From assembly GCA_017438525.1 (NCBI GenBank), contig JAFRVI010000004.1, positions 79,281 to 143,280 of the forward strand: 64,000 bases of DNA, given 5' to 3'. Source of the stretch: Clostridia bacterium (GTDB taxonomy: Bacteria; Bacillota; Clostridia; Oscillospirales; RGIG8002). Every line of letters begins with the position of its first letter. Position 1 is the stretch's first letter. A program made the translations under genes and the position numbers. The notes below the pieces were generated by a model, which saw only the letters and a program-made list of their open reading frames with translations, did not search any database and was not told the origin of the DNA. Positions 128 through 51,299 of this stretch are shown piece after piece.

Positions 128-141
128 AAGGAGTGAATAAG

Positions 142-20810: not shown

Positions 20811-20844
20811 AAAACGCCCGAAGGGATCATCCTTCGGGCGTTTG
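20811..20844. terminator. Bidirectional rho-independent terminator closing the 31-kb minus-strand block
   Basis: Perfect 10-bp stem CGCCCGAAGG (20815-20824) / CCTTCGGGCG (20831-20840), flanked by an A-rich run on the 5' side and TTT on the 3' side. Confidence 0.72.
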
Positions 20845-26144: not shown

Positions 26145-29100
26145 TCAATCGTTCAGACCGGCGGCTTTGCGGAGTATCCGCAGAGCGTCGGAAACCGTTA
26201 TTTCTCCGTCGCCGTCAAGATCGGCGGCGAGACTCTGATAACCCTCCGGCTCTGCAAGCCCTACGGAAATGCGCAGCGCGGCAAGCGCGTCTGCGACGGT
26301 TATCTCCCCATCTTCGTCAAGATCCCCCATCGTGTAAGGAGGAGGCGTAGTGTCGACGACGATAAACCTAACGGTAGTTGAATACTCGTCGTATCCGTTC
26401 ACGACCTTGAGTTCATATTCGCCGGGCTCGGTCACATCGGCTTCTCCGTAGCGGCGCTCGCCGTTGAGATACGCGATATGCCCACAGTTCCAGGACGCGT
26501 GCACCTGATCGGTGTAAAGGTCGTAAATCGCTCCGTTCTCGACGCCGGTAATAACGGGAGCTCCGAGCGGTACGAATTCGAACTTGGTCGGATTGTTTTC
26601 GGCAAACGTCTGCGCATACGAACCCTCAACGCCGTAGAGCTTGACGATCTTTCTGTTTCCGCCGAAAAGCGTTCCGCTTATAGATGTGACGCTCTCGGGG
26701 ATATATACGGATTCCATAAGGTACTGTGTGCCGAGGTTGGCGCTTACGCTCGTCGTGCCTTCTCTTACGATAAGCTCTCTCGCGCGGTAGTTTCCGTTAA
26801 GCGCGGTGGAAGAAAAGGACGTTCCGTTCCCTACCGTCACGGTGCCGACGCCGGTGTTGCGGAACGCGTAAGTATTGACCGAAGTACCGTCAGGAATATC
26901 CGCGGCGCCGAGCAGTCTGCAGTCGTTGAAAGCGTACTGCCCTATCGTTTTAAGCGATGACGGGAACTCTATTTCGCGCAGCGAGCTGCACGCCTGGAAG
27001 GCGTACTGGTCGATCTTAGTAAGCGTATCAGGCAGCTTAACGGTCATATGATGCACGGTTCGGCCGTAGCCGGCAAAAGCGTACTGCCCGATAACCGTGA
27101 CGGGATATCCTTCTATTTCGTTCGGAATGACGACGTCGCGCAAACCGGAGATACAGTCGGTTATCGTGACCTGCTCGTTATTGATAGAATACATAAACTC
27201 ATCGGTCGCTGTTTTCGTCCCGTCGACAGTAAAGTCGGCCGCAGCGAACGACTTTCCCCGCTCCTCGTCAACAAGCTGCACGCGGTAGCTGCCGCCTTCG
27301 GGAATACGAACCCTGATAAAGCGGGTTAACTTCAGATAATTTGCGTCCGCTTCAAGTGAAAGCAGATTATCCTTATCAAGAGGAATTATCACTTCCGTAT
27401 CGTCGTCAAGGTTCTTCACCCTGACGGACGGATGCTCGTAATAAGGCGAGTTGACGGTTTCAAGATATACGTAGCCGTTACGGTTTATGGTAACGGTATC
27501 CGAGAACTCGTGACCGTCCGCCGAAACCCTGATGAAATCGTAAATAACCGTAGGCCTCGGACCGATCGCGGTCATCATTTTGTCTATCATGTGAGGCGTC
27601 GCGTACTTCATGTAGGCAACCTTCGAGGCGATCCTGTAATACGGCGAAGAGGGACTGAGCCGCGCGACCGCCGCCTGCAGAGCGGATTTGTCATACTCCT
27701 TCGGAAGCGCCCACTTCTGCAGCGAATGCGGATAGGTGCGCTCACCGAAGAAAACGTATGAGCTGTCGGGCGTGAATTTGATGCGCGAAACGATATACCC
27801 CTCGAGGTTGGCGTCGGTCTCTCCCGCTTTCAGCGTTTCGAGATACGTGCCGTCGGACGCAAAGAGCTTTGCGCCGCCGTCGTAAGACGCGACGACTATA
27901 TATTTGCCGTTCGGCGAATACGCGGCTTCTCTGATAACGTTGCCGAAGCCGCCGAGCAGCGAAACTAGTTCACCGCTTTCAACGTCGAACAAGCGGGCGG
28001 CGCCATAGGTGGACGTGCAGAGTATATTCTTATCGTCGGGCGAAAACTCGAGGCGTCTTACCGAACCGGTGTTGACGTTGTTGAGTTTCTTTATAAGCGT
28101 CTTGCTCTCGACGTCCCAAAGGCAGACGACTCCGTTATCGTCCGAGGTGGCGAGAAGGCGTCCGTCCGATGAGAAATCCGCGCCGCGGATCGCTCTGACG
28201 TGGCCTTCGGCAAGGTGAGCGTATTCGGTCCAGTCGGCAACGTTGTAGACAAAAGTACCGTTGCTCGTCGTCGTAACCGCGACTTTTGAACCGTCGTCTG
28301 TGATCGCTATGAAGCGCGGGTCGCTGCCAACGTCGATTTCCTGCAGTTTGGCGCCGGTGGTCGCGTTAAAAACGCGGAACTTCCATTTCCCGGTGCCGTT
28401 TGAATACTTCTGGGAGCCGCCGTTAAATCCGCCCACTATCAAGGCGCTGCTGTCTTTAGTGAATACCACGCTCTCCTGAATGACCGCGCCGTTGTATATC
28501 CTGCGCGGCGCCTTTGTGTAATCGGAGGTATCGAAAACCGCGATATTCCCCTGCGTGGATGCGACCGCAAGCTTGCTGCCGTCGGGAGAATAAAGAACGC
28601 GCAGCGCTCTGTCGAATCCGGTGGAAAGCACGTGCTTCGTCACGTTCGTGACCGGATCCATGATATAGACCTTCTTCATGTGGTCGGCGGAAGCGATCTC
28701 GGTGCCGTCGGGCTTGACGTCCGTCGGGAAGTTTATATCCCAGTAATCGTTGACGGCGACTGCGTTGAGACCGGTGGAATAGTTTACGCTTTCATCGGTC
28801 GTGTAGTCCTCGGTGCCGTCGGTCAGCTCGCCCGCTTCAAGGAAGCAGCGGACGTAGTCGACGTCGATGACGTATTCTTTCTCGGCGCCCCAGGATTCGT
28901 CGACCGTATTGCCCCATGAATCTGATGTCCTTGCGCGCGGTGTGTTATTGAAAACAATATATCTGGCGGTATCGCCGAAGGCAAACTTCTTTCCTTCACT
29001 GTTATAAAGAAGCGAATTGTACTGCATTCCGTCGAAGTAGTACCTGATCATATCGCGGTCCATTTCAAGACCGTAGGTGTGGTAATCGTCGCTCAGGTAC

Positions 29101-30854
29101 TTCTCGCCGTATCCGTTGATATTCATATATATAACCTTGGCCCAGTCCTTTTTGCCCTCGTCATCCGTCCAGTGGACGGTGCCGATGACCGTGCCGTTTT
29201 TGGCTATATCATCTTCGACGACCATTTCCATTATGTCGACTTCGCCGGCGCCCATATTCATCATATCGGTCGGCATAAGCCAGAACGCCGGGAACTGACC
29301 AGTGCCGTACGCCAGCTTTGCGCGGATCTCGATCTTGCCGTAGCCGAACGCAAACTTGCCGCTGGTGTTCATATACGTTCCGGACATTTCATAAGCGTCG
29401 TATCTGCCGTATCTGCCCTTGAAATGCATATTGCCGTCGGAAACGTCGATAAGGTCGTCGTCATCCGGATAAATCGCGCCGTCGGAATAACCGTCGTTCA
29501 CGTTCCACTTGGTGCGGTCGAGCGAGTTGCCGTCAAACTCGTCGCTCCAGCTCTGAACGTATTCTTCTTCAACGACTTTATACAGATAGAACTTTTTATA
29601 CGTCGAACTGGTAGTGGCTTTAACGGTTTCACCCGAAACGGTTAACCTTCCGACATTGCGTACCTGAATAGTCGCCTTTCCACCCGTAATGCTGATAGAC
29701 CACTCTTGGCGCGTGTTATTGAGGTTCGGTTCTTTCGCCTCGATACTTGTGCCGGATTCCGAAATCGTAAGCACGTTTGTGCTCGATTTATTGATTATCC
29801 TAAACGCACCGTTGCCGGAGGGAGACATTGAAAGCTGCCACATCTGCGTGCGGTCGCCTTCCCTGTTTTCTTCAAGCGAGTATTTGAGCGAACTGTCTTC
29901 GATCGCGAGAGTATTGTCTCCCCATCTGATAGCCGTTTCAGGAACGGGAGGCCCGAGTGTTATCGCTTTACCCGAGGAAGACTCAATGATTTTATAGTAT
30001 GCGTTATTGACTATCTGACTGCGGGCGGTGATCTGCGTCTCGGAATAAGCGGTCGCCGCGCTGCTTTCGAGTATCTCATTATAAGCGTTCAGATCCGCAA
30101 CCGAAAACGACGTACCGTTCGACTCTATACGGATATAGTTCATGCTGCCGTCCTTCGCGAGCGGCGAATCGCCTGCTGCAGTAAAGATTTCAAACGGGAT
30201 ATAGATATAACCGAATCCCCATACAACAATATCAGAGGCGGTGTAAGTATAGTTATCCTCGGCCGAACGCAGTCCTATTGTAAAGCTGAAAACGTTGCCG
30301 TCATTCGGCGCGAGCCACAGTTTCAGACCATCCGCCTTCGACATATCAAGGCCGAACGGAGACTGACCGGCGACGCCGCTTCTCGACGCGCCGTTGGAAA
30401 GGACGGTCCCGTTTTCATCTCCACTCACCGAGACGGAAAACTCAACGCCTTCCGGCTTATGCTCTTTGTCGAGAACGGGAGCCGAGGAGGACTCGTTCAT
30501 CGAGGCAAGATCCTCGGACGTCCAGCCGTTGAAGCCGTTAAGCTGAATAAGCTCGACGTCATGCATCGGCTCGAGCATATTCTCGGCGTTTTTGACCTCG
30601 TTAAATGCGGCTTCGCGTTCTTCGTCGGTCGCAAGGTCGTTATACGCCGCAAAAGTAGCTTCCCATCTCTCGATGCGGTCGGCGAGGTATTTTCTCGACT
30701 GCTCGCTGTAACCTTTATAAAGAAGGGATCTGGCGTAAGCATATTCGTCGATCGCTTCCGGCTCGTCAGCGCCGACGGTCACCGCCGCCGAAAACGGCAG
30801 CATAGAAAGCGCGAAAGCAAGCGTAAGCAGTATGGCGATGAGTCTTCTTTTCAT
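26145..30854 (-). CDS. Giant secreted multidomain protein, paralogue 1 of 4: ricin-type lectin + GH16 + WD40/PD40 propeller + BspA-type LRR + dockerin
   Basis: 1,569 aa. Signal peptide MKRRLIAILLTLAFALSMLPFSA. Two QxW motifs (QMWQLS, QEWSIS). GH16 elements WSDEFDG...GKIEIRAKL...FPAFWLMP...GEVDIMEM. Propeller repeats YSPDGSKLAVAS, FSSDGRLLATSDDNGVVCLWDV and FSPDDKNIL...ARLFDV. LRR elements IEGYPVTVIGQYAF and LPDTLTKIDQYAFQACSSLREIEFP. The dockerin is at the C-terminus. A GGAGG RBS precedes the start. Confidence 0.85.
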   Translation of the reverse strand: MKRRLIAILLTLAFALSMLPFSAAVTVGADEPEAIDEYAYARSLLYKGYSEQSRKYLADRIERWEATFAAYNDLATDEEREAAFNEVKNAENMLEPMHDVELIQLNGFNGWTSEDLASMNESSSAPVLDKEHKPEGVEFSVSVSGDENGTVLSNGASRSGVAGQSPFGLDMSKADGLKLWLAPNDGNVFSFTIGLRSAEDNYTYTASDIVVWGFGYIYIPFEIFTAAGDSPLAKDGSMNYIRIESNGTSFSVADLNAYNEILESSAATAYSETQITARSQIVNNAYYKIIESSSGKAITLGPPVPETAIRWGDNTLAIEDSSLKYSLEENREGDRTQMWQLSMSPSGNGAFRIINKSSTNVLTISESGTSIEAKEPNLNNTRQEWSISITGGKATIQVRNVGRLTVSGETVKATTSSTYKKFYLYKVVEEEYVQSWSDEFDGNSLDRTKWNVNDGYSDGAIYPDDDDLIDVSDGNMHFKGRYGRYDAYEMSGTYMNTSGKFAFGYGKIEIRAKLAYGTGQFPAFWLMPTDMMNMGAGEVDIMEMVVEDDIAKNGTVIGTVHWTDDEGKKDWAKVIYMNINGYGEKYLSDDYHTYGLEMDRDMIRYYFDGMQYNSLLYNSEGKKFAFGDTARYIVFNNTPRARTSDSWGNTVDESWGAEKEYVIDVDYVRCFLEAGELTDGTEDYTTDESVNYSTGLNAVAVNDYWDINFPTDVKPDGTEIASADHMKKVYIMDPVTNVTKHVLSTGFDRALRVLYSPDGSKLAVASTQGNIAVFDTSDYTKAPRRIYNGAVIQESVVFTKDSSALIVGGFNGGSQKYSNGTGKWKFRVFNATTGAKLQEIDVGSDPRFIAITDDGSKVAVTTTSNGTFVYNVADWTEYAHLAEGHVRAIRGADFSSDGRLLATSDDNGVVCLWDVESKTLIKKLNNVNTGSVRRLEFSPDDKNILCTSTYGAARLFDVESGELVSLLGGFGNVIREAAYSPNGKYIVVASYDGGAKLFASDGTYLETLKAGETDANLEGYIVSRIKFTPDSSYVFFGERTYPHSLQKWALPKEYDKSALQAAVARLSPSSPYYRIASKVAYMKYATPHMIDKMMTAIGPRPTVIYDFIRVSADGHEFSDTVTINRNGYVYLETVNSPYYEHPSVRVKNLDDDTEVIIPLDKDNLLSLEADANYLKLTRFIRVRIPEGGSYRVQLVDEERGKSFAAADFTVDGTKTATDEFMYSINNEQVTITDCISGLRDVVIPNEIEGYPVTVIGQYAFAGYGRTVHHMTVKLPDTLTKIDQYAFQACSSLREIEFPSSLKTIGQYAFNDCRLLGAADIPDGTSVNTYAFRNTGVGTVTVGNGTSFSSTALNGNYRARELIVREGTTSVSANLGTQYLMESVYIPESVTSISGTLFGGNRKIVKLYGVEGSYAQTFAENNPTKFEFVPLGAPVITGVENGAIYDLYTDQVHASWNCGHIAYLNGERRYGEADVTEPGEYELKVVNGYDEYSTTVRFIVVDTTPPPYTMGDLDEDGEITVADALAALRISVGLAEPEGYQSLAADLDGDGEITVSDALRILRKAAGLND
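26148..26333 (-). other. Dockerin module of paralogue 1
   Basis: Two EF-hand-like segments: GDLDEDGEITVADALAALR and ADLDGDGEITVSDALRILR. Confidence 0.8.
26625..27197 (-). other. BspA-type leucine-rich repeat (LRR_5-like) region of paralogue 1 (residues ~1220-1410)
   Basis: Repeating (I/L)P..(V/L)..I...AF..C..L..(I/V) units, for example LPDTLTKIDQYAFQACSSLREIEFPSSLKTIGQYAFNDCRLL. Confidence 0.75.
27705..28757 (-). other. WD40/PD40-type beta-propeller region of paralogue 1 (residues ~700-1050)
   Basis: Seven to eight ~40-45-aa repeats, each with an SPDG/SSDG/TDDG turn followed by a hydrophobic strand and x(F/W)(D/N)V endings. Confidence 0.7.
28839..29567 (-). other. GH16 catalytic module of paralogue 1 (residues ~430-672)
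   Basis: WSDEFDG start. ExDxxE catalytic motif EVDIME is encoded at 29226-29243. The module ends ...YVIDVDYVRCF. Confidence 0.8.
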
Positions 30855-30912
30855 AGTTTACCTCCGTTTCTTTTGCGGAAAAGACGAAGTAATAATTTGA
30901 GTTGATTGACGA

Positions 30913-33900
30913 TTATTGTTCAAAGGGAGCGTCAATCTTCGCGGCGACGCGAAGGATGCGGAGCACGTCGGAAACTGTCACTTCGCCGTCTTTGTCGACG
31001 TCGGCGGCCTCCGCCTGATAGCCCTCCGGCTCGACGATCCCGAGTGCTATGCGGAGCGCCGTGAGCGCGTCGGTAACCGTGACTTCTCCGTCGTCGTCAA
31101 CATCACCAATAGTGTACGGAGGAGGCGTCGTATCGACGACCGTGAAGGTCACGGTCGTTTTATACTCGTCGTAGCCGTTTATAACTTCGAGCGTGTATTC
31201 GCCGGGCTCGGTCACGTCGGCGTGTCTGTAGCACGCTTCGCCGTTGAGGTATCCGATGTGTCCGTTTTCCCACGTCGCTGAAACGGGCGCTTCATAGAGG
31301 TCGTAGGTCGCGCCGTCTTCGACTCCGTGAACGATGGGAGCGCCTATCGGAACAAATATAAACTTTGTCGGATACGACTCGGCGTAAGTCTGCGCATAGC
31401 TTCCCTCGACGCCGTAGATCTTGGCAAGGTATTTTGTGTGCAGATCGCTTACGTTATTGTCTACAAAACTGTAAATACCGCCGCTTATGGAAGTTACGCT
31501 CTCGGGAATATAAACAGCTTCGAGAAGATACTGAGAAGAAATATTGAGCGAGAGACTTTGTATTCCGTCAGCAACGATTATTTCTCTTACGCGCGACATA
31601 CCGGAAAGAGCGCCGCTTGCGATACCCGATCCGGAGTTGAGCTTTATAGTTCCGACGCCGGCGTTGTTAAAAGCGTTGGAACTGACGGTCGTGCCGGCGG
31701 GAATATCAACGACGCTGAGCAGTCTGCATCTGCTGAAAGCGTACTGTTCTATCTTTTCAAGTCCTGCGGGGAACTTTATCTCGCGCAGAGACCAGCAGTT
31801 ATAGAATGCGTAACTGCCGATAACCTTAAGCGTGTCGGGAAGCGTAACGGCCATATGCATAACGTTGGTTCCGTAGCCGTCGAAAGCATAAGAACCGATC
31901 TTGGTGACCGGGTACCCCTCTATCTCACTCGGAACAACGACGTTGCGCCTTCCGGAGATGCACTTCGTTATCGTGACCTCTCCGTCCTTTATAGAATAGA
32001 GGAATCCTTCCGCGGCGGTAGCGTCACCGTTGACGGCAGCGCTTGCCTTCGGGAACGCCTTGTTGGAATCAAGGCCGACAAGTTCGAACTCGAATACGCC
32101 TGCTTCCGCCATCTTGACCTTGAAATCGTAACGGCAATACGCCTCAATTTCGTCGTTTTCATTATAATCCATAAAGAATCCGGCGTCGTCCGCGGGAATA
32201 AGCTCGCTTGTGCCGTCATCGGTATTCGTAATCTTAAGCGCGAGATCCGCGTATTCCGGAGACGCTCCTGCAGTAACGTAGACGAACGCGTTTTTATTGA
32301 CGGTAACGCTCGGCGGCGTCGTGTATCTGTCGGGAGAAACGCTGATGAATTCGTCGGTCTTCGCCGTTCCGCCGATGCCGGTATACGCCTTGTAGATCAT
32401 CTGCGGAGTAGCATACTTCAAGCCGGCAATCTTCGCGGCGTAAGCGTATTCGGGCGTGGTCTTGTCCGCGCAGTTGCTCATGGCAAGCTTAAGCTGCGTT
32501 TTGTCGTACTGCTTAGGAAGATCCCACTTCTGCACCGCGTACGGATCGGTACGAGTGGTGAACATAACGTAATCGTCCTTATACGGCGAAAACTTGATGC
32601 GGGAAAGAATGAAACCCTCGCCGTTCTCGTCGGTCTCTCCCGCTTTCAGCGTTTCGAGATATGTGCCGTCTGCGGCGAAAAGCTTCGCGCCGCCGTCATA
32701 GGAAGCGACGGCGATATATTTGCCTTCCGTCGAATAGGTCGCCTCGCGGATGACATTGCCGAAGCCGCCGAGCAGCGAGATAAGCTCTCCGCTCTCGACC
32801 TCAAACAGACGCGCGGCGCCGTAGGTCGCGGTCGCGAGGACGTTCTTATCGTCCGGCGAGAAGACTACGCGCCTTACCGAGCCGGAGTTGACGTTGTTGA
32901 GCTTCTTGTTGAGCGAAAGATCGGAAACGTTCCAGACGTTTATGACGCCCTTGTCGTCGGAAGTCACGAGCAGGCTGCCGTCCGAAGAAAAGTCGGCGCC
33001 GCGGATCGCTCCGTCGTGGCCTTCGGTTATATGGCCGTATTCGCTCCAGTCGGAAACGTTATAGATGAACGTGCCGTTGCTTGTTGTAGTTACCGCTACT
33101 TTAGAACCGTCGTCGGAGAGCGCTATGAAGCGCGGATCGCTGCCGACGTCTATATCCTGAAGCTTCGCGCCGCTCGAGGCGTCAAAGACGCGGAAATGCC
33201 ACTTTTCAGTTTTGCCGCCGGTCTGCGGATTCTGATACGCCTGCGAGCCGCCGTTGTAACCGCCGACTATCAGGTATTTACTGTCCGGCGTAAACAGAAC
33301 GTTCTCTTGAATAACGGCGCCGTTATAGATTCTGACCGGCGTGTTATCGTAATTGGAAGTATCATAAATCTGTATGCATCCCTGCGTATTTGCGACAGCG
33401 AGTTTCGTGGCATCCGGCGAATACAGAACGCGGAAGGATCTGGTGTACTTAGACATCGCAGAAGCAAGGTTGATGTATTTGAGTGTTTCTCCGGTATACG
33501 GATCGAATATGTAGAGATTTGAGAAATGATCCGCCGCGGCGCCTTCGTTGCCGTAGCAGTTGATATCCATCGGCATATTGATATCCCACGCGTCGTTGGT
33601 GGCAACGGCCTCTATGCCGGATGAATAGTTGACGCTGTCGTCAGTCGTGAAGTCGACGGTATTATCGCTCATTTCACCGGCTTCAAGATAGCATCTGACG
33701 TAGTCTATCTGGGTTTCGTATTTATCCTCGAGACCCCACGCTTCTCTGACGATGCTTGCGCCGTCGCCTTTGGTGGAGTTATTTATGATGATATATCTTG
33801 CGATATCTCCGAAGGCGAATTCCTTGCCTTCGCTGTTTATCACGAGCGAATTGTACTGCATCCCGTCAAAGTAGAATCTTATCTGATCGCGATCCATCTC

Positions 33901-35691: not shown

Positions 35692-35750
35692 AATCGTCCC
35701 TCCGTTCAAAGCGTTGAGAATAATTAAATGATAGTACTTAATTATAGGGT

Positions 35751-39698: not shown

Positions 39699-39752
39699 GT
39701 TTTTGCCTCCTGAAAATATATTTAATTATTTTACTCGCAATATAAGCAGCCG

Positions 39753-40586: not shown

Positions 40587-40594
40587 AGGCGTTA

Positions 40595-41716: not shown

Positions 41717-41757
41717 TTGGTGTTCCTCCAGACTATTTTTCAAATATTATTTATAAA

Positions 41758-44700
41758 TCAGAGACCTATCGCTTTCCTGAGAACCGCAAGGGCGTCTGCT
41801 ACCGTGATCTCTCCGTCTCCGTCGAGATCTATGGCAGCCGTCACTTTTTCACTCGGAGCGTAAAGTCTCGCCGCGGCGCGCAGCGTAAGCAGAGCGTCGG
41901 ATACGGTGATTTCTCCGTCTCCGTCAGCGTCGCCCGGAACGGGCGTGGTATCAACCACGGTAAAGCTCACCTCTGTGGTGAACTCGTCGTAGCCGTTGAC
42001 GACTTTGAGCGTGTATTCGCCGGGCTGAGTGATCGGCTTTCCCGCGTCGTAATACTCGCCGTTCAGGTATGCGACGTGACCGTCGTCCCACGTTGCGCTC
42101 ACGGCTCCGTCGTAAAGGTCGTATGTCTCCCCGTCTTCGACGCCGCTTATCACCGGAGCGGCGAGCGGGACGAATACAAGTTTGTCGCTCGTCGCCGCGT
42201 ATGTTTCGGCGGCGGTGCCGGGATAGCCGTAAACCTTGACGGTGTAATACGGTCCGCGCAGGCAGTTTGCGTTGACGGTCGTCGCGCTTCTCGGGATATA
42301 AACGCGCTCAAGCAGAAACGCCAGATTCGAAACGTTTGCGTTGATCGTTTTCACGCCCTCGGCGAAGATGTAGCATCTGTTGCCTATCGACGACGGGAAG
42401 GTGTTTCCCGGCACCGTAGTCAATCCGCCGCCGATCTTGACGTATCTCGCTCCGCGGACGTAATGGAAAGCGTTCGAAGAGAGGGTTGTGACGCTGTCGG
42501 GTATTTCGACGCATGCGAGACTGAGGCAGCGCTGGAACGCATACTGCCCGATGTATTCAAGGCCTTCCGGCAGCTCGAGCTCCTCAAGCGAAGCGCACTC
42601 GCTGAACGAATAGTTGCCTATGCGTTTAAGTGTTGCCGGCAGACGGAGCTTCATATGGCGTACTGTCCTGCCGTAGTTCGCGAAAGCGTAGTCGGCGATC
42701 TTCGTCACGGGATAGCCGTCTATGTAATCCGGTATATACAGATACTCGGCTCCGGACTTACAGGAGTTAATCGTGACGGTATCGTCGGAGTTTACGGTGT
42801 AGAGGAAATCGCGCGTCGTGGCGTTCTCATCAACCGAAACGGTAACAGCGGAGGAAACTTCGCCGGTGTCAGCGTTTACGAGGCGAATGCGGTAGTTCCC
42901 CGCCTTCTCGATATAAGTGCGCATGAGCACGCTTTCATAAGGCGCGTCGATAAGCTCACCGCCCATCTTAATTTGACCGGCGGGTATCCTTACGCTGCTC
43001 TCTTCGGCGGTGTTTAGTATCTCGACGAAAACGTTATCCGCAAGGATCGAAACGTCGGCTTTGACGTAGATCCAGCCGTCGCGGAAAACGTTCGCAGAAG
43101 CGGCGTAGTCCGCGGCGTCGGCGGAAACCGAGACCGCGCGGAACGTCGCGGCCGCGCTTTCGCCGGTAAGGTCGGCGACCGCCATCGAAACCATCGTGCT
43201 CGTGGCGTATTTCAGAGAACAGACCTTTTGCGCGTTCTCGAGCTTTTCATCCTGCTCCTCGTATTCGTCTATCGCCGCTTTCAGCGCGGACTTGTCAACG
43301 TTTTTGGGCAGCTCCCAGCGGTTCACGCAGCACGGGAGCGAAATCTCGGTGCAAAGCACGTATTTGCTGTCCGGGGTAAAGCATATCGCGGACGAAACGT
43401 GACCTTCGGACTGGAGATCGTTTTTCTGAAGCAGAGTGCTGATATACGTTCCGTCGGCGGCGAAAAGCTTGAGCGTATGGTCGAACGAGGAAACGACAAT
43501 GTATTTGCCGTCCGGCGAATATGCCGCCTCGTTGATTATGCCGTCGAATCCGCCGAGAAGCGAAACGCATCTGCCGCTTTCAACGCTGTAAACGCGGGCG
43601 GCGGTGTCGTTGCTGTTTGTGACGATATATCTGCCGTCCGGCGAGAACGAGAGGGTTCTGACCGAGCTTTCGTTGACGGTGTCGAGGCGGCTTACCGCGA
43701 CTTTGTCGGCTACATTCCAGAAAACGACCTCTCCGGCTTCATCCGCAGTTGCGAGCAAAGTCCCGTCCGGAGAGAACCTGCAGCGGTTGATCGTATTTAT
43801 GTGCTCGGTCGTGAAGCGAGCGTATTCGCTCCAATCTCCGGTATTAAAAATGAATATTCCGGCGCTGGTGGTCGTCGCCGCAAGCTTTGTCCCGTCGGGC
43901 GAAAGGTCGATCGAAAGCGGATCGCTTTCGACGAAGAGCTCGTGCTCCTTCGCGCCGCTCACCGCGTTGAATACACGGAGATAGTGCGGCTCGGTAACGG
44001 AACTGTTTATCGGGTTTTTCAGCGCCTGCGCGCCGCCATTGAAGCCGCCGGTTATGATATGCTGACCGTCGGCAGTGAAGCAAAGCGAATACTGCATAGT
44101 CGCGCCGTTGTGTATTTTCACAGGCGACTTTGAAAAATCAGAAGTGTCATATATGATAACCGAACCGGTCATGGTCGCCGCGGCGACCTTGCTTCCGTCG
44201 GGCGAATACGCGACCGAGAGGAAGGCGTTATACTTTTCAGTTGAAACGGTATCGAGCAGCTCGTTTGTGCGCGGATCGTAGACGCAGAGGAAGCCGGCCT
44301 GGTCGGCCATTACCGCCTGCGTTCCGTCCGGCGAGATCGCCATCGGGAAGTTATACATAAAGCTATTGTAGTTTCTTCCCATGTATTCGACGGCGCTCGC
44401 TTTCTGCACGGAGTGATCCGTCGTGAAATCGGGCGTACTGTCGGTAAACTGCTCCTCGCGGACGGAAACGCGGACGTAATCGACAACCATTTCCCTGTCG
44501 TAATACTCATACTGCGGATATACGACGCAGTAGTCGTCGCCCTGTATACCGCCGGAGGAAAGGATGATATACCTCGGCACGTCGCCGTAAGCGAACCTGA
44601 TGCCGTCGTTGACAAGATTGAGCGTAACGATAAGCGCGCCGTCGAAGTACATCCTAACCTGATCGGTATCGATTTCTACGGCGTAATCATGATAATCCTC

Positions 44701-46500
44701 ATCGAGCGAAACTTTGTTTTCCGAATAGATATACAGCGGTTTCGCCCAGTTTTTCTTTCCGCTCGCGTCGCTCCAGTGGAACGTCGCTATCTGCTGACCG
44801 TAAAGGTCGTCGCCGTATTTTACGTAATCTTTGTGCTGAACAGGCATTTCCATAAGGTCGATCTCGGAGCGCGCCATATTCATCGAATCGACCGGCATAA
44901 GCCAGATCGCAGGCCACATTCCCATGCCCTTCGGCATTTTCGCTCGGATCTCGAATCTGCCGTAGGTCATCGCGTATTTGCCGTTCGTCTTCAGGTGCGG
45001 CGCTTTGGACTGGTAGCCGTTATAATCGCCGGCGTAAGTGCGGAGTATGAGGTTGCCGTCCTCGAGAAATGCGGTGTCGTCGGAATCGACGTAGAGCGCG
45101 CTGTTGCCGCCGCCGAAGAAGAACCCGCTGTCCGCCTGCCAGATGGATCTGTCAAGCGTTTCGCCGTCGAATTCGTCGCTCCAGGTGCTGACATAATCTC
45201 CGTCGTGTACTTTGCAGATTATAAACTTCTTATATGCCGATCCGTTCGTTGCTTTCAGCGTAGTGCCGGTATACGTCAGCTTGCCGACGCTTCTGACCTG
45301 TATTGTGAACTCTCCCTTCGCGGCGGAAAGCGCGAATTCCTCGTAAATATCGTTATAGTCGACCTTGTCGAAAGAGACCGATGCGGCGGAAGGTATTCTC
45401 ATCGCGCACGCGCTGGCCTTGTTGATTATTCTGAACGTTCCGTTCCCGGAGGGATCCGGCGAAAGCTGCCAGAGCTGAGTAAGCAGACCTTCTTCAGCCG
45501 GCTCGATACTGAAAGACATACTTTCATCTTTCGTATTTATAGCGCCTTCCCAAAGAAGCGCCGTCTCATCCGGAACCGGACCGAGCGTGAGCGCTTTGGG
45601 AGAATCGGTTCCGTAGGAATCAACGGTATAAATCTTGTAATAAGCGTTGTCCTCTATCGCGCCCCTTGAAGTTATTTTTTCTTCGGAATAGGGCTTGCGG
45701 TTTGAAACGTCGACGATTTCGCGGTAGGCGCAAAGTCCGGCGATACGAAGCACGGAGGCGCCCTCGCACTCGACGCGAATACTGTTCATTAGGCCGTTGG
45801 TTTCGATCTCAGCGCCGTCGTCGAACGGAACGAAGAAGTAATACGGAACGGTGATATATCCTTCACCCTCAACGGGAATATCCGAAACGGCGAGCGAATA
45901 ACCGCCGGATGCTGAAACCTTGCCGACGGTAAGCGCGAGGGTTGAAGGCGCGTCAACGCTCACCCAGAGGCGTAAGCCGTCAGTATCGGAGGCGTCCATG
46001 CCGAAGGGGGAAACGCCGGCAATCCCGCCGGGAATAGAGTTATCGTAAACGAGAACGCCGTCGCCGGATATTTCGACCGACTGCGCCGCGCCTTCCGGCT
46101 TATGCTCCGCGTCGAGACGAAGCGCGCCGACCGAGGAAGACATCTGAGCGATATCGGCGTCTGTCAGCGTGTCAAACGAAAGCTGCCTGACGTCCTCTCT
46201 GCCCTTCATGGGCGCGAGCAGTTCGATTCCGGAGGAAAGCTCGGAGATGAGCGCGGCAAGCTCATCTTCCGCGGCAAACCGATTATACAACGCCGCTTCT
46301 GCGCGAAGATATCTGTCGTAAAGATATTTCTCCGTCTGCTCGCTGTTGTCTTTAAAAAGCAGCGGGCGTACGGACTCCATCACGACGGAAAGCTGCTGAC
46401 GCAGTTGATCCGACGGCGCGTCCGCGGAAATCACCGCGGACGGAAGCAGCGATATCGCAAACGCGAATATCACGATGGCGGTAATGGCTCTTTTAATCAT
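41758..46500 (-). CDS. Giant secreted multidomain protein, paralogue 3 of 4 (same architecture)
   Basis: 1,580 aa, collinear with the other three. GH16 motif EIDLME is at 44848-44865 and the dockerin at 41761-41937. A GGAGG RBS precedes the start. Confidence 0.85.
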   Translation of the reverse strand: MIKRAITAIVIFAFAISLLPSAVISADAPSDQLRQQLSVVMESVRPLLFKDNSEQTEKYLYDRYLRAEAALYNRFAAEDELAALISELSSGIELLAPMKGREDVRQLSFDTLTDADIAQMSSSVGALRLDAEHKPEGAAQSVEISGDGVLVYDNSIPGGIAGVSPFGMDASDTDGLRLWVSVDAPSTLALTVGKVSASGGYSLAVSDIPVEGEGYITVPYYFFVPFDDGAEIETNGLMNSIRVECEGASVLRIAGLCAYREIVDVSNRKPYSEEKITSRGAIEDNAYYKIYTVDSYGTDSPKALTLGPVPDETALLWEGAINTKDESMSFSIEPAEEGLLTQLWQLSPDPSGNGTFRIINKASACAMRIPSAASVSFDKVDYNDIYEEFALSAAKGEFTIQVRSVGKLTYTGTTLKATNGSAYKKFIICKVHDGDYVSTWSDEFDGETLDRSIWQADSGFFFGGGNSALYVDSDDTAFLEDGNLILRTYAGDYNGYQSKAPHLKTNGKYAMTYGRFEIRAKMPKGMGMWPAIWLMPVDSMNMARSEIDLMEMPVQHKDYVKYGDDLYGQQIATFHWSDASGKKNWAKPLYIYSENKVSLDEDYHDYAVEIDTDQVRMYFDGALIVTLNLVNDGIRFAYGDVPRYIILSSGGIQGDDYCVVYPQYEYYDREMVVDYVRVSVREEQFTDSTPDFTTDHSVQKASAVEYMGRNYNSFMYNFPMAISPDGTQAVMADQAGFLCVYDPRTNELLDTVSTEKYNAFLSVAYSPDGSKVAAATMTGSVIIYDTSDFSKSPVKIHNGATMQYSLCFTADGQHIITGGFNGGAQALKNPINSSVTEPHYLRVFNAVSGAKEHELFVESDPLSIDLSPDGTKLAATTTSAGIFIFNTGDWSEYARFTTEHINTINRCRFSPDGTLLATADEAGEVVFWNVADKVAVSRLDTVNESSVRTLSFSPDGRYIVTNSNDTAARVYSVESGRCVSLLGGFDGIINEAAYSPDGKYIVVSSFDHTLKLFAADGTYISTLLQKNDLQSEGHVSSAICFTPDSKYVLCTEISLPCCVNRWELPKNVDKSALKAAIDEYEEQDEKLENAQKVCSLKYATSTMVSMAVADLTGESAAATFRAVSVSADAADYAASANVFRDGWIYVKADVSILADNVFVEILNTAEESSVRIPAGQIKMGGELIDAPYESVLMRTYIEKAGNYRIRLVNADTGEVSSAVTVSVDENATTRDFLYTVNSDDTVTINSCKSGAEYLYIPDYIDGYPVTKIADYAFANYGRTVRHMKLRLPATLKRIGNYSFSECASLEELELPEGLEYIGQYAFQRCLSLACVEIPDSVTTLSSNAFHYVRGARYVKIGGGLTTVPGNTFPSSIGNRCYIFAEGVKTINANVSNLAFLLERVYIPRSATTVNANCLRGPYYTVKVYGYPGTAAETYAATSDKLVFVPLAAPVISGVEDGETYDLYDGAVSATWDDGHVAYLNGEYYDAGKPITQPGEYTLKVVNGYDEFTTEVSFTVVDTTPVPGDADGDGEITVSDALLTLRAAARLYAPSEKVTAAIDLDGDGEITVADALAVLRKAIGL

Positions 46501-46554
46501 ATTGTCCTCCGTTCCGAACGCATAGCGTTCATTTATCTGTCAAACGGTTTCAAC

Positions 46555-49500
46555 TCAATCAAGACCGACGGCGATCCTCAAAACCGCCAGGGCGTCGGCA
46601 ACGGTTATTTCTCCGTCGCCGTCAAGATCAATGGCGGCTATCACTTTCTCCGCGGGAGCGTAAAGCCGCGCCGCGGCGCGGAGCGTAAGCAGCGCGTCGG
46701 AAACGGTAATGACTCCGTCGCCGTCGGCGTCGCCCCTGAGCGGAGTGGTATCGACAACGGTAAAGCTGACTTCGGTCGTGAACTCATCATATCCGTTGAC
46801 GACCTTCAGCGTATATTCGCCGGGCTCGGTAATCGGTCTGCCGGCGTAGTAGGTCTTTCCGTTCAGATACGCAATATGACCGTCATCCCAGGACGCCGCG
46901 ACAGATCCGTCATAAAGGTCGTAGGTCTTCCCTTCCTCAACGCCGGTGATCGCCGGAGCCGCAAGCGGCACGAACTCAAAGCGCGCGTCCGAAGCGGCGA
47001 ATGTTTCCGCGTAGGTCCCGGGATATCCGTAAAGCTTTACGGTACCGAGCATATTCGATATGAAATTTCTGTTCATATTCGTCATACTGCGCGGAACGTA
47101 CACTCTTTTTATAAGTCTGGCGTTGGACGAAATATACCCCTGAACGGTCTGCACTCCCTCATCAAAGATGAAGCAGCGGTTGCTGACCGTCATATAGAAA
47201 GTATTGCCCGAAACGTTTTTAAGACCGCTTCCGATCTTTATATACGACGTGCCGCGGGCGTAATAGAAAGCGTTGTATCCGAGCGTTCGGACGCTCGACG
47301 GAACGTCGATGTGCGCCAGCGACAGGCATCTGCCGAACGCGTATGTTCCTATCGATTCAAGTCCGTTCGGGAGATCGAGCTCCTCAAGCGAGGTGCATTC
47401 GTAGAAGGCGTATGCGCCGATGGTTTTCAAAGTCGACGGGAGACGGAGCTTCATGTGCAGCACGGTCTGGCCGTAGTTCTGGAACGCGTAGTCGCCTATC
47501 GCGGTCACGGGATAACCATCGATATAGTCGGGAATATAAACCGATTCGGTTCCGCACTTGGCGCCGGTTATCGTGACCTCGCCGCCGGATACCGTGTAGA
47601 AGAAATCGCGGGTAGTCGCAACATCGCTCACGCTGACGGACGCGCTCACGGAAACTTCGCCGTCGGAATCAACGAAATATACCGTGTATTCGCCTTCGGT
47701 GATATGCGTTCTCAAAAGAAGTCTGACGTAACCGTCGCCCGCGTCGTCATACGAAATCTTGAATTGATCGACGGGCATTTCGACCGGAAGCTCGCCGTTC
47801 TTTTTGATAACGACAGAGGGCTCGCACGCGCGCGAAACCTCGGCGCTTATATAAAGCCAACCGCCGCGGTATATCGAAGCGGATTCCGCGAAGGATTCGC
47901 CGTCCGCCGAAACGGATACGGTTCTGAAAGAAGCCGGAAGCGCGGTACCGGTCAGCGCGGCGGCCGCTGAAGCGACCGACTTCGCGGAAGCGTGCTTCAT
48001 AGCGTAGACCGCTTTCGCGTTCTCAAGCTCGGGCGACTGCCCGGAGCAGGCATCGATCGCGGCCTTGAGGACGGATTTGTCGACCGCCTGAGGCAGCTCC
48101 CATCTGTTGACGCAGGACGGGAAAGAATAACTCGACGTATAAACGTATTTACCGTCGGGAGTGAAGCATATCTTAGACGCGATGTGACCGTAATTGGATT
48201 GGCCGCCGGGAATCAGAGTGCTTACGTAAGTCCCGTCCGCATAGAAAAGCTTCATCGTCCTGTCAAGCGAAGCCGCGGCGATGAATCTGCCGTCCGGCGA
48301 ATACGCGACCTCGTGGATCTGTCCGGAAAAGCCGCCGAGCAGCGATACGCAGCGTCCGCTTTCAACGCCGTAAACGCGGGCGGCGCTGTCGGTGCAGGTG
48401 GTAACTATGTATTTTCCGTCCGGAGACCAGGCGAATTTCCTGACCGAGCTTTCGTTGACGGTATCGAGTCTGCGCACGGCGTTTTTACCGGCAACGCTCC
48501 AGATAACGACTTCGCCCGCTTCGTCAGAGGTCGCAAGCAGCGAACCGTCCGGAGAAAAGCGGCAGAACTGCACGGTGTTCACGTGTTCGGTCGTGAAGTG
48601 AGCGTATTCGCTCCAGTCGTCGACGTTGAAAACAAACACGCCGGCGCTCGTGGTGGTAACCGCAAGTTTGCTTCCGTCCGGCGAAAGATCGGCGGAGAGC
48701 GGGTCGCTTTCAACGAATATCTCATTTTCAAGCGCGCCGGTAGAAGCGTTGAAAACTCTGATATAATGCGCTTTAGTAACCGAGCTGTTATTGGGGTTCT
48801 GCAACGCCTGCGCACCTCCGTTAAAGCCGCCGGCGATCAGATGTTCGCCGTCTTTTGTGAAGGCGAGACAGTAATGCATAGTAGCGCCGTTGTTGATCCT
48901 GACGGGCGCTTTTAAGAAATCGGAAGTATCGTATATTACCGCGCAGCCGTTCATAGTGCCGGCCGCGAACTTTTTGCCGTCCGGAGAATACGCGGCGCTG
49001 ATAAACGCCCTGTAGTTTATCGTGGTGGGCACCGTCCGAAGGACCTCGCCCGTGCGCGGATCGAAAACGCAGAGTATGCCGGACTGATCCGCCATTATCC
49101 CCTGCGTTCCGTCCTGAGAAATATCCATCGGGAAGCTGGACATAAAGAAGTTGGAATCCCTGCCGAGATACTCGACGCCCTGCGACGTAACGGTGGAATA
49201 CTCGGAAGTGAAATCCGGCGTATCGTCTGTTCCCTGCTCGGAGCGGATATAGGCGCGGACGTAATCGACGCGGAGTTCCTTGTCGCCGTAATATCTGTCG
49301 GGATCAAGGACGGCGCTGCTGATTCCTTCGATGCCGCCGGAGGAAAGAATGATATACCTCGCGACGTCGCCGTACGCGAATTTCTTTCCGTCGTCGTCGA
49401 GATTGAGCGACATACACAGCGCACCGTCGAAATACATACGCACCTGATCGGTATCCAGCTCAACCGTATAAGTGTGATAATCGTTCGCGAGATCCTCGAA

Positions 49501-51243
49501 ATTCTCGGCGTATATATCTACGCGTTTATCAAGGTATTCAGTCCCGGCCGGATTCGTCCAGTGCAGAGTTCCGATCTGCCTGGCGTAGAGCTTGTCGCCC
49601 TGGCTGTCGTATTCGTCGGCGGTGACGGGCATTTCCATAAGGTCTATCTCGGAACGAGCCATATTCATCGAGTCGACCGGCATCATCCAGAGCGCGGGCC
49701 ACATACCGAATCCCTTCGGCATCTTGGCGCGTATCTCTACGCGTCCGTAACTTATAGCGTACTTGCCGCTGGAAAGAATATGCGGAGCGACGGACTCGTA
49801 GCCGTTATGATCTCTGTTGAGCGTTCTCAGGACGAGATCGCCGTCTTCAACGAAGGCGGTCTCTTCTGAATCGATATAAAGCGCGGTGTTTTTTCCGCCG
49901 AAGAAGAATCCTGTGTCGGCGCGCCAGATGTTAGAGTCGAGCTTGTCGCCGTCGAACTCATCGCCCCACGTCTGTACGTACCCGCCGTCGTTGACCTTGC
50001 AGACGACAAACTTCTTAAAGGAGTTGGAAGCCGTGCCTTTGACCGTCGTACCCGCGTAAGTAAGCTTCGCAACGCCGCGCACCTGTATGGTGAATTCGCC
50101 TCTTGAAACGGTGAGACCGAATTCCTGCGTCGTATCGTTATAATCGATCGTGTCATATGTAAGCACCGTCGCGGCGTTACCCATCGTCATGGCGTAGGCG
50201 GTGGCTTTGTTGATTATCCTGTAAGTCGAATTACCCGACGGGTCCGGCGTAAACTGCCAGAGCTGCGCCGGATCGCCCTCCGCCGCGGGTTCAAGCGTGA
50301 AAGCGTAGTTGTTCTGCTGGAGGGTTATTGTTACCGCTTTCGGATCATCGGTGCCGTAGGAATCAACGGAGTAGATTTTATAATAAGCGTTATCGACGAT
50401 TCCGCCTCTGGTCGTGATGCGTTCTTCGGAATATGGCGTTTTTCCGGAAATGTCGACGGTCTCGCGATAAGCGTGGAGATCCGCGATATAAAGCGTATCC
50501 GCGCCCTCACATGCGATGCGGATATAGTTCATCAGCCCGTCGGTCTCGATCCGAGCGCCGTCCGTGTCGGGAACGAACATATAATACGGGATCGTTATAT
50601 ACCCTTCGCAGTCAACAGGAATACCTGAAGCGGTAAGCGAATAGCAGCCGGCCTCGGCGCGCTTGCCTACGGTCAGAGAAACAATTGCGGGCGCGTCGGC
50701 GGATATCCAAATACGAAGTCCGTCCGTATCGAACATATCCATACCGAACGGAGAGGCACCGGAAACGCCGCCTTCAACGGAGTTGTCGTATACGATGCCG
50801 CCGTCGGAAACGATCTTAAGCGACTGCCTCGCGGCTTCCGGTTTATTCACGGCGTCAACGCTGACGACGCCGACGCTGTTTGCCATAAGCGCGATATCAT
50901 CGGCAGTGATATAATCGAACGACATAAGCCGGACGCGCTCACTGCCCTTCATCGGCGCGAGGAAGTCGACTCCGTTACACACGTCTTCCAGAAGCCCGTA
51001 AAGCGTTTCCGCGTCGGCGCTACCTTCAAACAGCGCCGCCTCCGCGCGAAGAATCCGGTCATAAAGATACTTCTCGGTCTGCTCGCTGTTGTCTTTATAA
51101 AGCAGCGAATGCGCGAACTCAATCGCTTCCGAAAGCTGCGCACGGAGCGCGTCGGTATCACCTTCGGCGTGTATCCACGCGGAAGGAAACAGCGAAGCCA
51201 GCATGGCGATTATTATAAGCGCGGTAATCGTCTTTTTAACCAT
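46555..51243 (-). CDS. Giant secreted multidomain protein, paralogue 4 of 4 (same architecture)
   Basis: Collinear with paralogue 3. GH16 motif EIDLME is at 49633-49650 and the dockerin at 46558-46737. ATG 51243 (GGGGTGA RBS) is preferred over the GTG at 51252. Confidence 0.85.
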   Translation of the reverse strand: MVKKTITALIIIAMLASLFPSAWIHAEGDTDALRAQLSEAIEFAHSLLYKDNSEQTEKYLYDRILRAEAALFEGSADAETLYGLLEDVCNGVDFLAPMKGSERVRLMSFDYITADDIALMANSVGVVSVDAVNKPEAARQSLKIVSDGGIVYDNSVEGGVSGASPFGMDMFDTDGLRIWISADAPAIVSLTVGKRAEAGCYSLTASGIPVDCEGYITIPYYMFVPDTDGARIETDGLMNYIRIACEGADTLYIADLHAYRETVDISGKTPYSEERITTRGGIVDNAYYKIYSVDSYGTDDPKAVTITLQQNNYAFTLEPAAEGDPAQLWQFTPDPSGNSTYRIINKATAYAMTMGNAATVLTYDTIDYNDTTQEFGLTVSRGEFTIQVRGVAKLTYAGTTVKGTASNSFKKFVVCKVNDGGYVQTWGDEFDGDKLDSNIWRADTGFFFGGKNTALYIDSEETAFVEDGDLVLRTLNRDHNGYESVAPHILSSGKYAISYGRVEIRAKMPKGFGMWPALWMMPVDSMNMARSEIDLMEMPVTADEYDSQGDKLYARQIGTLHWTNPAGTEYLDKRVDIYAENFEDLANDYHTYTVELDTDQVRMYFDGALCMSLNLDDDGKKFAYGDVARYIILSSGGIEGISSAVLDPDRYYGDKELRVDYVRAYIRSEQGTDDTPDFTSEYSTVTSQGVEYLGRDSNFFMSSFPMDISQDGTQGIMADQSGILCVFDPRTGEVLRTVPTTINYRAFISAAYSPDGKKFAAGTMNGCAVIYDTSDFLKAPVRINNGATMHYCLAFTKDGEHLIAGGFNGGAQALQNPNNSSVTKAHYIRVFNASTGALENEIFVESDPLSADLSPDGSKLAVTTTSAGVFVFNVDDWSEYAHFTTEHVNTVQFCRFSPDGSLLATSDEAGEVVIWSVAGKNAVRRLDTVNESSVRKFAWSPDGKYIVTTCTDSAARVYGVESGRCVSLLGGFSGQIHEVAYSPDGRFIAAASLDRTMKLFYADGTYVSTLIPGGQSNYGHIASKICFTPDGKYVYTSSYSFPSCVNRWELPQAVDKSVLKAAIDACSGQSPELENAKAVYAMKHASAKSVASAAAALTGTALPASFRTVSVSADGESFAESASIYRGGWLYISAEVSRACEPSVVIKKNGELPVEMPVDQFKISYDDAGDGYVRLLLRTHITEGEYTVYFVDSDGEVSVSASVSVSDVATTRDFFYTVSGGEVTITGAKCGTESVYIPDYIDGYPVTAIGDYAFQNYGQTVLHMKLRLPSTLKTIGAYAFYECTSLEELDLPNGLESIGTYAFGRCLSLAHIDVPSSVRTLGYNAFYYARGTSYIKIGSGLKNVSGNTFYMTVSNRCFIFDEGVQTVQGYISSNARLIKRVYVPRSMTNMNRNFISNMLGTVKLYGYPGTYAETFAASDARFEFVPLAAPAITGVEEGKTYDLYDGSVAASWDDGHIAYLNGKTYYAGRPITEPGEYTLKVVNGYDEFTTEVSFTVVDTTPLRGDADGDGVITVSDALLTLRAAARLYAPAEKVIAAIDLDGDGEITVADALAVLRIAVGLD

Positions 51244-51299
51244 ATCAGTCACCCCGTTAAATCAGTCTTTCAATCCGTTCGGTTAAAGCGGAAAAAGAA

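Follow-up and report, generated by a model that had tools for sequence, protein, structure and literature searches.

Tandem genes of an uncultured Clostridia lineage encode dockerin-bearing proteins that join a predicted GH16 β-1,3(4)-glucanase to a WD40 propeller

We analyzed a 64,000-nucleotide stretch of contig JAFRVI010000004.1 from an uncultured Clostridia bacterium (hereafter the window), in which four giant paralogous genes, P1 to P4, encode single chains carrying a ricin-type lectin, a glycoside hydrolase family 16 (GH16) domain, a WD40 propeller, a BspA-type leucine-rich repeat (LRR) domain, and a dockerin. The evidence makes it probable that the four genes specify secreted endo-β-1,3(4)-glucanases of rumen Clostridia, which would be tethered to a surface or scaffold and targeted by lectin and protein-binding modules. 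A first-pass annotation, made by a model from the sequence, had proposed this module order, and Pfam HMMs supported it. With the structure models described below, the full order runs signal peptide, three-helix bundle, jelly roll resembling a carbohydrate-binding module (CBM), ricin trefoil, GH16, and WD40, followed by a second three-helix bundle, an Ig-like sandwich, the LRR, a second Ig-like sandwich, and the dockerin; P2 has a module order identical to that of P1. The motifs quoted in that annotation were roughly right: QEWSISI was indeed found in P1 and P2 only, but P2 reads GEQS instead of SEQS, P1 reads LSMSPSGNG in the ricin-type region, and P4 is without part of the segment ending in TLG. 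No NCBIfam model covers the four proteins.

As had been claimed, both the GH16 and the WD40 assignments were backed by Pfam in all four proteins: PF00722 (Glyco_hydro_16) scored 41-48 bits against a gathering score of 22, and PF00400 (WD40) scored 45-84 bits against a gathering score of 27. The E-x-D-x-M-E strand occurred as E[VI]D[IL]ME in all four paralogues, and E538, D540, and E543 (nucleophile, helper Asp, and acid/base, respectively) were invariant in 26 homologues, down to 28% identity. The extra Met of this strand marks the β-bulge form, which is typical of laminarinases and not of the classical lichenases (ExDxE). The best PDB relatives of the GH16 module were the Thermotoga laminarinases 4dfs and 3azx (1e-18), to whose GEIDIMEM the GEVDIMEM strand was aligned; PtLam, ZgLamC, and LamCAT came next, and the top of the list consisted exclusively of β-1,3- and β-1,3(4)-glucanases. 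From the β-bulge motif and the invariant catalytic residues, we predict that the GH16 modules are laminarinase-like (GH16_3-type) and catalytically competent, with putative endo-β-1,3(4)-glucanase activity.

The WD40 region was most similar in the PDB to the Nostoc WD40 protein 2ymu (5e-55), and a blade HMM derived from these four proteins counted eight repeat units in P3 and P4, consistent with the seven to eight blades of the first-pass annotation. Its label "WD40/PD40" held for WD40 in all four proteins, whereas PD40 was a weak secondary match in P4 only. A profile of the GH16-WD40 segment was then compared with 1.84 billion 50%-identity representatives, and among the best 150 matches at least eight 50%-identity clusters, each with GH16 and WD40, aligned over the full profile without a break. 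The other matches among these 150 were repetitive WD40 arrays, so that more distant fusions may be hidden behind them. The C-terminal halves of the fusion proteins varied. One relative (P0222, 1080 aa) has the signal peptide, ricin, GH16, WD40, LRR_5, and dockerin parts but neither the N-terminal module nor any Ig-like part; two others (P0217 and P0025, ~1490 aa) have a second copy of the helix-plus-jelly-roll module instead of the LRR and keep the dockerin; and a fourth (P0313, 1002 aa) carries a lipoprotein-type signal and ends directly past the propeller, without a dockerin. The gene of the latter stands in tandem with a second GH16-WD40 gene, beside a dockerin-bearing rhamnosidase-like gene.

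In every relative found, to ~28-30% identity and across these differing anchoring modes, WD40 followed GH16. Ricin-GH16-WD40 is the conserved core, which would be displayed on the cell surface by varying means; judging from the relatives, the LRR and dockerin are frequent but not obligatory, a second CBM-like module and a lipoprotein anchor occur as putative variants, and the lipoprotein-type signal that P0313 has in place of a dockerin may be another route to the cell surface. Tandem GH16-WD40 genes of 925 and 1002 aa without LRR or dockerin were also observed at L088:7040-12839 and at two similar loci (L089 and L090); this type of tandem adjoins a gene for a dockerin-bearing Bac_rhamnosid6H protein, one of its genes has a lipoprotein-type signal, and one member of the contig family comes from a ruminant-labelled assembly. 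Duplication of the GH16-WD40 core therefore occurred more than once. The fusion is described in none of the literature searched, where WD40 was named beside GH16, dockerins, or cellulosomes only as an incidental co-mention.

The first-pass annotation had also called the module combination unusual, and it proved rare in both cluster collections searched. In a word-indexed search of 5.8 billion 90%-identity clusters, the combination was present in a few dozen clusters; full-length relatives numbered about two dozen, no similar protein turned up outside this set, and only one full-length locus was found among the best 80 matches in 185,579 species genomes (one genome per species). The recognizable sources of the relatives are ruminant gut, for example the goat-rumen metagenome-assembled genome (MAG) RGIG3742, RGIG being the ruminant gastrointestinal genome catalogue; assemblies labelled XIEF21 and WILK20 that also hold relatives are taken by us to be ruminant data sets. 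A SpoIVA gene at 124-1620 (plus strand) of the window indicates that the host is a spore-former, and the relatives of this SpoIVA form a small clade at ≥80% identity and then drop to ≤62%, including Ethanoligenens and Ruminiclostridium. By these sequence markers, the host is a spore-forming, uncultured, and fairly isolated Clostridia lineage.

Export and tethering were predicted from both ends of the chains. The annotated signal peptide was borne out in all four proteins by Sec-type features, namely a putative basic n-region, hydrophobic core, and Ala-rich cleavage region at the N terminus. At the C terminus, Dockerin_1 (PF00404) scored 30-39 bits in all four (gathering score, 22.9), and the two-segment dockerin described earlier has both D-x-D-x-D-G-x-[IV]-[TS]-x-x-D calcium-loop repeats intact in every paralogue; a 68-nt repeat was found twice per dockerin.

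The lectin was recognized as RicinB_lectin_2 (PF14200) above its gathering score in P1, P2, and P4, and the corresponding region of P3 scored 20.3 bits against a cutoff of 25.6, yet aligns with the other paralogues. P1 and P2 retain two of the three QxW-like motifs, which are degenerate in P3 and P4. This ricin-type trefoil (CBM13-like) is a putative sugar-binding module.

Three stretches without a Pfam match were modelled by AlphaFold2 and compared by Foldseek. The N-terminal module had no Pfam match, CBM families included, even at E=10. In the model of P1 aa 28-300 (pLDDT 84.7), aa ~32-92 formed a three-helix bundle bearing the nearly invariant EQ[ST]xKYLxDR motif, and aa ~99-261 a β-sandwich (jelly roll), in line with the ~65-aa helical segment and following β-rich module read from the sequence earlier. 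The best Foldseek matches of the jelly roll were structures of the β-glucan-binding CBM11 (1v0a and 6r31; E 1.6e-4, probability 1.0, TM 0.50), with Clostridium thermocellum CBM30 also matched and the laminarin-binding CBM 8qx6 lower in the list. The ~170-aa module that had been left unassigned is thus, by its predicted fold, a CBM11/CBM30-like β-jelly roll; we call it CBM-like and do not file it as CBM11 because a family HMM match was absent. A profile search with this module returned one fragment and missed even known family members, and thus gave no information on its distribution.

In the model of P1 aa 1040-1512 (pLDDT 84.6), the LRR solenoid was preceded by a further three-helix bundle and an Ig-like sandwich and was followed by another, small Ig-like sandwich. 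The "Ig-like spacer" of the first-pass annotation was accordingly present as a sandwich, with a three-helix bundle in front of it that had been missed, and its second Ig-like module was recovered as a ~60-aa all-β sandwich; Foldseek matches of these sandwiches to Ig-like folds were weak. The BspA-type LRR was confirmed by LRR_5 (PF13306) at 71-119 bits in all four proteins (gathering score, 27.7), and its Foldseek matches were 4fs7, TpLRR, and PcpA, together with 6mlx (TM 0.64) and 4oju (TM 0.68). The N-terminal module and the post-WD40 spacer were judged not homologous (hhalign probability 2%), and comparison of the spacer sandwich with the second Ig-like module gave an hhalign probability of only 51%.

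All four long minus-strand coding sequences were found as open reading frames where they had been reported. The longest frames of P2 and P4 begin at upstream TTG (35709) and GTG (51252) codons, respectively, and a GGAGG-like Shine-Dalgarno sequence lies 6-9 nt upstream of each of the ATG codons at 35691 and 51243, which are therefore predicted to be the biologically sensible starts; a Shine-Dalgarno site is present at the start codon of every paralogue. With the ATG starts, all four products exactly matched deposited GenBank proteins from a 148,611-bp contig, each auto-named "MAG: leucine-rich repeat protein [Clostridia bacterium]". The coding sequences sum to 18,921 nt (29.6% of the window), in keeping with the first estimate of ~19 kb or 30%, and the reported end-to-end collinearity held in full-length alignment. 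Amino acid identity was 61% for P1/P2, 63% for P3/P4, and 41-44% for the cross-pairs. DNA identity between copies reached at most 84%, over 151 nt, which indicates old duplicates without recent gene conversion. In the ricin region, P1 and P2 are 87% identical in amino acids; recent gene conversion was considered as the source and rejected, and because near-identical DNA was not found between the copies, this identity reflects constraint. Counts of promoter-like and terminator-like elements at the locus showed no excess over shuffled expectation, the sole strong terminator being at 20812-20843, past the alkaline phosphatase gene. Rfam and ARAGORN scans of the 64-kb window found nothing near the locus; their single match was a tRNA-Pro (CGG) at 18125-18201 on the minus strand.

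The four copies have been maintained, as the first-pass annotation supposed. Each paralogue forms its own orthologue cluster and clade across several assemblies, and the gene order of the locus was found again in at least five independent assemblies: a giant GH94 gene, DUF4886, P4, P3, a Zn-ribbon gene, EEP, and CBM4_9x6-EEP-dockerin, followed by P2, P1, EEP-dockerin, lgt, folD, and alkaline phosphatase. In the goat-rumen representative (L001), tblastn detected at least P3-, P2-, and P1-type genes; the idea that this locus holds a single P1/P2-type copy was discarded, as its P1-type gene runs off the locus end. Identity to the goat-rumen copy is only 61% for the window P2, as against 80-85% for the P1 and P3 types. 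Nei-Gojobori comparison of the window paralogues with their orthologues in a related locus (L081) gave dN/dS values between 0.09 and 0.19, which, with dS ~1 or higher and near saturation, are only semi-quantitative. For P1 the ratio was 0.093 overall and 0.03-0.19 per module (WD40, 0.076; GH16, 0.071), and for P2 it was 0.185, so that the P2 type changes at roughly double the rate of the P1 type. All modules thus appear to be under purifying selection. The most divergent parts among the paralogues were the CBM-like module and the helix-plus-Ig spacer.

From these data, a course of action can be proposed. The protein would be exported, its dockerin would plug into a cohesin on a scaffoldin or the cell wall, and the ricin and CBM-like modules would hold the enzyme on a β-glucan-containing surface, where GH16 would cut β-1,3-linked glucan, with fungal or yeast wall glucan, callose, and cereal mixed-linkage glucan as candidates. 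WD40 and LRR could act as protein-binding platforms that tie the enzyme to target-surface proteins or to partner subunits. Since the CBM-like module and the helix-plus-Ig spacer have diverged most, the four paralogues probably differ in targeting rather than chemistry. Several points weigh against this reading. The GH16 sequence suits strict laminarinase and β-1,3-1,4-glucanase activity alike; the CBM assignment is one of fold similarity (TM 0.5, 10-18% identity, no Pfam CBM match); the selection ratios carry the saturation limit given above; WD40 and LRR may serve as structural spacers; and a cohesin gene was absent from the 64-kb window and from every ±10-kb flank examined.

The most serious rival, with roughly one chance in four, is that the proteins are ordinary fiber-degrading cellulosome subunits acting on soluble or plant β-glucans (cereal mixed-linkage glucan or callose), with the WD40, LRR, helical, and Ig-like parts as ligand-free rigid spacers or "X modules". 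In its favor, modular CAZymes with a dockerin are laid out in this way, the N-terminal module has its best fold match in CBM11, which binds mixed-linkage glucan, relatives swap the LRR for a second CBM-like module, and ruminococcal cellulosomes are rich in LRR and unknown modules without a known role (PMC2930009). However, a propeller that is strictly retained behind GH16 down to the most distant relatives, under a constraint equal to that of the catalytic domain and beyond what a spacer would be expected to show, argues against a mere spacer, and the catalytic motif is of the β-bulge laminarinase type and not the lichenase one.

That the proteins are primarily adhesins, attaching by LRR and WD40 to cells or host material and using GH16 mainly for carbohydrate recognition, seems improbable. 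Surface proteins or adhesins (4gt6, PcpA, and TpLRR) are the nearest LRR relatives of solved structure, NCBI names the proteins by their LRR only, and there is a weak NCBIfam match to the adhesin HupY/LrrG; yet the three catalytic residues are invariant in 26/26 homologues, GH16 is among the most constrained modules, and several relatives keep GH16-WD40 without any LRR. An artifact, either a chimeric metagenome assembly or decaying non-functional duplicates, is very improbable. The window does come from a MAG, and long repeated genes are prone to misassembly, but full-length proteins that are identical or nearly so were found on many independently assembled contigs in NCBI, ENA, JGI, and Logan (for example, contigs of 148,611, 148,936, 434,028, and 79,395 bp). 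Moreover, the four reading frames are uninterrupted with dN/dS well under 1, the Shine-Dalgarno sites are in place, and the short stretches of at most 84% identity leave no near-identical inter-copy DNA to cause collapse. The best-supported reading of the four proteins is that of probable tethered, targeted glucanases. The coordinates of the genes and their modules are listed in Table 1.

Table 1. Positions in the window of the four paralogues, their modules, and neighboring genes
Gene	Feature	Coordinates	Strand	Length	Accession	Basis or remark
P1	Gene	26145..30854	minus	1569 aa	MBQ6552140.1	
P1	Signal peptide	30768-30854	minus			
P1	N-terminal three-helix bundle	30579-30761	minus			AlphaFold2
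P1	CBM-like jelly roll	30072-30560	minus			AlphaFold2, Foldseek
P1	Ricin-type trefoil	29571-29999	minus			Pfam
P1	GH16	28830-29567	minus			EVDIME at 29226-29243
P1	WD40 propeller	27705-28739	minus			Pfam
P1	Second three-helix bundle	27564-27686	minus			AlphaFold2
P1	First Ig-like sandwich	27207-27539	minus			AlphaFold2
P1	BspA LRR	26565-27197	minus			Pfam, Foldseek
P1	Second Ig-like sandwich	26355-26528	minus			AlphaFold2
P1	Dockerin	26160-26333	minus			Pfam
P2	Gene	30913..35691	minus	1592 aa	MBQ6552141.1	Length from ATG
P2	CBM-like	34915-35400	minus			
P2	Ricin	34417-34842	minus			
P2	GH16	33676-34413	minus			EIDIME at 34060-34077
P2	WD40	32518-33585	minus			
P2	LRR	31345-32004	minus			
P2	Dockerin	30940-31113	minus			
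P3	Gene	41758..46500	minus	1580 aa	MBQ6552145.1	
P3	CBM-like	45715-46203	minus			
P3	Ricin-like	45205-45642	minus			Pfam score below gathering score
P3	GH16	44452-45201	minus			EIDLME at 44848-44865
P3	WD40	43309-44358	minus			
P3	LRR	42163-42807	minus			
P3	Dockerin	41767-41934	minus			
P4	Gene	46555..51243	minus	1562 aa	MBQ6552146.1	Length from ATG
P4	CBM-like	50458-50946	minus			
P4	Ricin	49990-50385	minus			
P4	GH16	49237-49986	minus			EIDLME at 49633-49650
P4	WD40	48094-49143	minus			
P4	LRR	46963-47604	minus			
P4	Dockerin	46567-46734	minus			
Neighbor	Alkaline phosphatase	20861-23230	minus			Co-directional with glucanase genes
Neighbor	EEP-dockerin protein	25037..26107	minus	356 aa		Signal peptide, EEP, dockerin; downstream of P1
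Neighbor	CBM4_9x6-EEP-dockerin protein	35751..39698	minus	1315 aa		Between the two pairs
Neighbor	EEP-family protein	39753..40586	minus	277 aa		N-terminal hydrophobic anchor
Neighbor	Double Zn-ribbon protein	40595..41743	minus			C-terminal membrane anchor

Genes for predicted exported phosphoesterases are clustered at the locus, one for an alkaline phosphatase and three of the EEP family, all co-directional with the four glucanase genes. By Pfam, the 1315-aa protein between the pairs consists of a signal peptide, six CBM_4_9 repeats, an EEP phosphoesterase domain, Big_3, and a dockerin, and is possibly a co-displayed enzyme; PDB comparison did not reveal its ligand specificity. The EEP-dockerin protein downstream of P1 showed weak similarity only, to the ExeM/NucH DNase and Nocturnin. 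The nearest characterized relatives of the EEP proteins appear too distant to name a substrate, and the arrangement suggests that the dockerin-bearing EEPs and the alkaline phosphatase form a co-displayed hydrolase set. The CBM4_9x6-EEP-dockerin gene is kept in close relatives and absent from two other loci (L091 and L092). The EEP genes as a whole were rejected as obligatory partners and treated as optional, being present in close relatives but missing from these divergent loci.

The double Zn-ribbon protein (372-382 aa) has two CxxC...CxxC ribbons and an unannotated ~200-aa middle domain, and no relative apart from zinc ribbons was found in Pfam, NCBIfam, or the PDB. Its gene also occurs at L001:4501-5622, L091:5793-6914, and L092:7046-8161; it lies between paralogues in every lineage examined, and its products are 65-88% identical, compared with ~50-60% for the flanking giants. 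The protein belongs to a widespread family that is frequent in other gut Clostridia. In metagenome contigs from human gut, homologues at 34-60% identity are common, and 49 homologues elsewhere, mostly from human gut, were without GH16, WD40, EEP, DUF4886, or GH94 within 6 kb. The Zn-ribbon protein was therefore dismissed as a dedicated partner, which it probably is not.

Directly upstream of the P4-type gene lies a DUF4886 gene (51300-52043, minus strand; 247 aa, no signal peptide), which adjoins a P4-type gene also in L086 and in the divergent L091. Beyond it, a gene at 52222-59625 (minus strand) encodes a 2467-aa protein with predicted membrane segments at ~267-313, 658-703, and 788-822 and with DUF3131, Glycoamylase (PF10091), a GH94 supersandwich, and a GH94 catalytic domain. 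This protein resembles the C-terminal half of cyclic β-1,2-glucan synthases, its N-terminal ~840 aa are without a Pfam match, and its gene adjoins the DUF4886 and P4-type genes in L086 too.

The locus as a whole invites a more speculative and rather unlikely extension, in which the ricin-GH16-WD40(-LRR) proteins would be recognition and wall-breaching subunits of a bacterial surface complex directed against eukaryotic rumen microbes, a "mycolytic cellulosome" with an extracellular WD40 domain at its center. The targets would be anaerobic fungi and yeasts, whose surface proteins WD40 and LRR would bind; GH16 would open the β-1,3-glucan wall layer, after which the dockerin-bearing EEPs and alkaline phosphatase would break down nucleic acids, phospholipids, or phosphomannan. 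Should fungal or yeast wall glucan prove to be the substrate, the locus would suggest that rumen bacteria antagonize fungi or recycle necromass, with a bearing on fiber digestion and yeast feed additives; if the substrate were cereal β-glucan, they would be merely elaborate fiber enzymes.

To our knowledge, true bacterial WD40 propellers are known almost only from cytoplasmic signaling proteins, and the link of WD40 to a hydrolase, kept across deep divergence, offers a tractable handle on an extracellular role of bacterial WD40. The orphan LRR-dockerin proteins of rumen cellulosomes likewise gain an enzyme-linked relative, and the three-helix bundle with its jelly roll is, on the structure models, a probable new β-glucan-binding module.

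The cellulosome of Ruminococcus flavefaciens FD-1 is among the closest known systems. GH16-dockerin and LRR-dockerin proteins, which the first-pass annotation had named, are both present there, as separate proteins and without a propeller, and 28 LRR modules occur among its 222 dockerin proteins (PMC2930009). The FD-1 GH16-dockerin proteins resemble P1 to P4 in having a signal peptide, GH16, a type I two-repeat dockerin, and CBMs, and in their origin from gut or rumen Clostridia; they have no WD40 or LRR in the chain, whereas here a propeller of about eight blades always follows GH16, and the chains described here are far larger (~1,570 aa), with ricin and CBM11-like flanks and a laminarinase-like GH16. 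The FD-1 LRR-dockerin proteins share a BspA-type LRR beside a C-terminal dockerin, but they are non-catalytic chains of signal peptide, LRR, and dockerin, whereas here the LRR is a dispensable accessory of an enzyme.

The closest solved catalytic domains are those of Lam16A from Thermotoga maritima and T. petrophila (3azx and 4dfs) and of Zobellia ZgLamC (4crq), at E values of 1e-18 to 1e-15. They share the GE[IV]DIME strand and the WPA-x-W motif region with the paralogues, yet are only ~30% identical to the paralogue GH16 and are without propeller, LRR, or dockerin; in Lam16A, the catalytic domain is flanked by β-glucan CBMs. The bacterial WD40 proteins of Nostoc punctiforme (2ymu) and Thermomonospora (PkwA, 5yzv) have the same kind of true repeats with GH...WD signatures. 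The known bacterial arrays in the search results, however, are combined with kinase, STAND NTPase, caspase, or TIR domains typical of cytoplasmic signaling, whereas the propeller of the paralogues lies in a predicted exported protein and is fused to a glycoside hydrolase. C. thermocellum CBM11 (1v0a) and CBM30 (2c24) are jelly rolls of similar size in cellulosome-type enzymes; the likeness is at the level of fold only, and here a three-helix bundle with EQ[ST]xKYLxDR precedes the jelly roll. Against this background, the earlier description of an "undescribed extracellular system" was overstated, since every recognizable module belongs to a known family and follows modular cellulosome-type logic, the loci examined yielded neither a cohesin nor another dedicated partner, and the proteins were already in GenBank under an uninformative name. 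The architecture is rare and uncharacterized, yet it is built from known modules along the known logic of cellulosomal enzymes.

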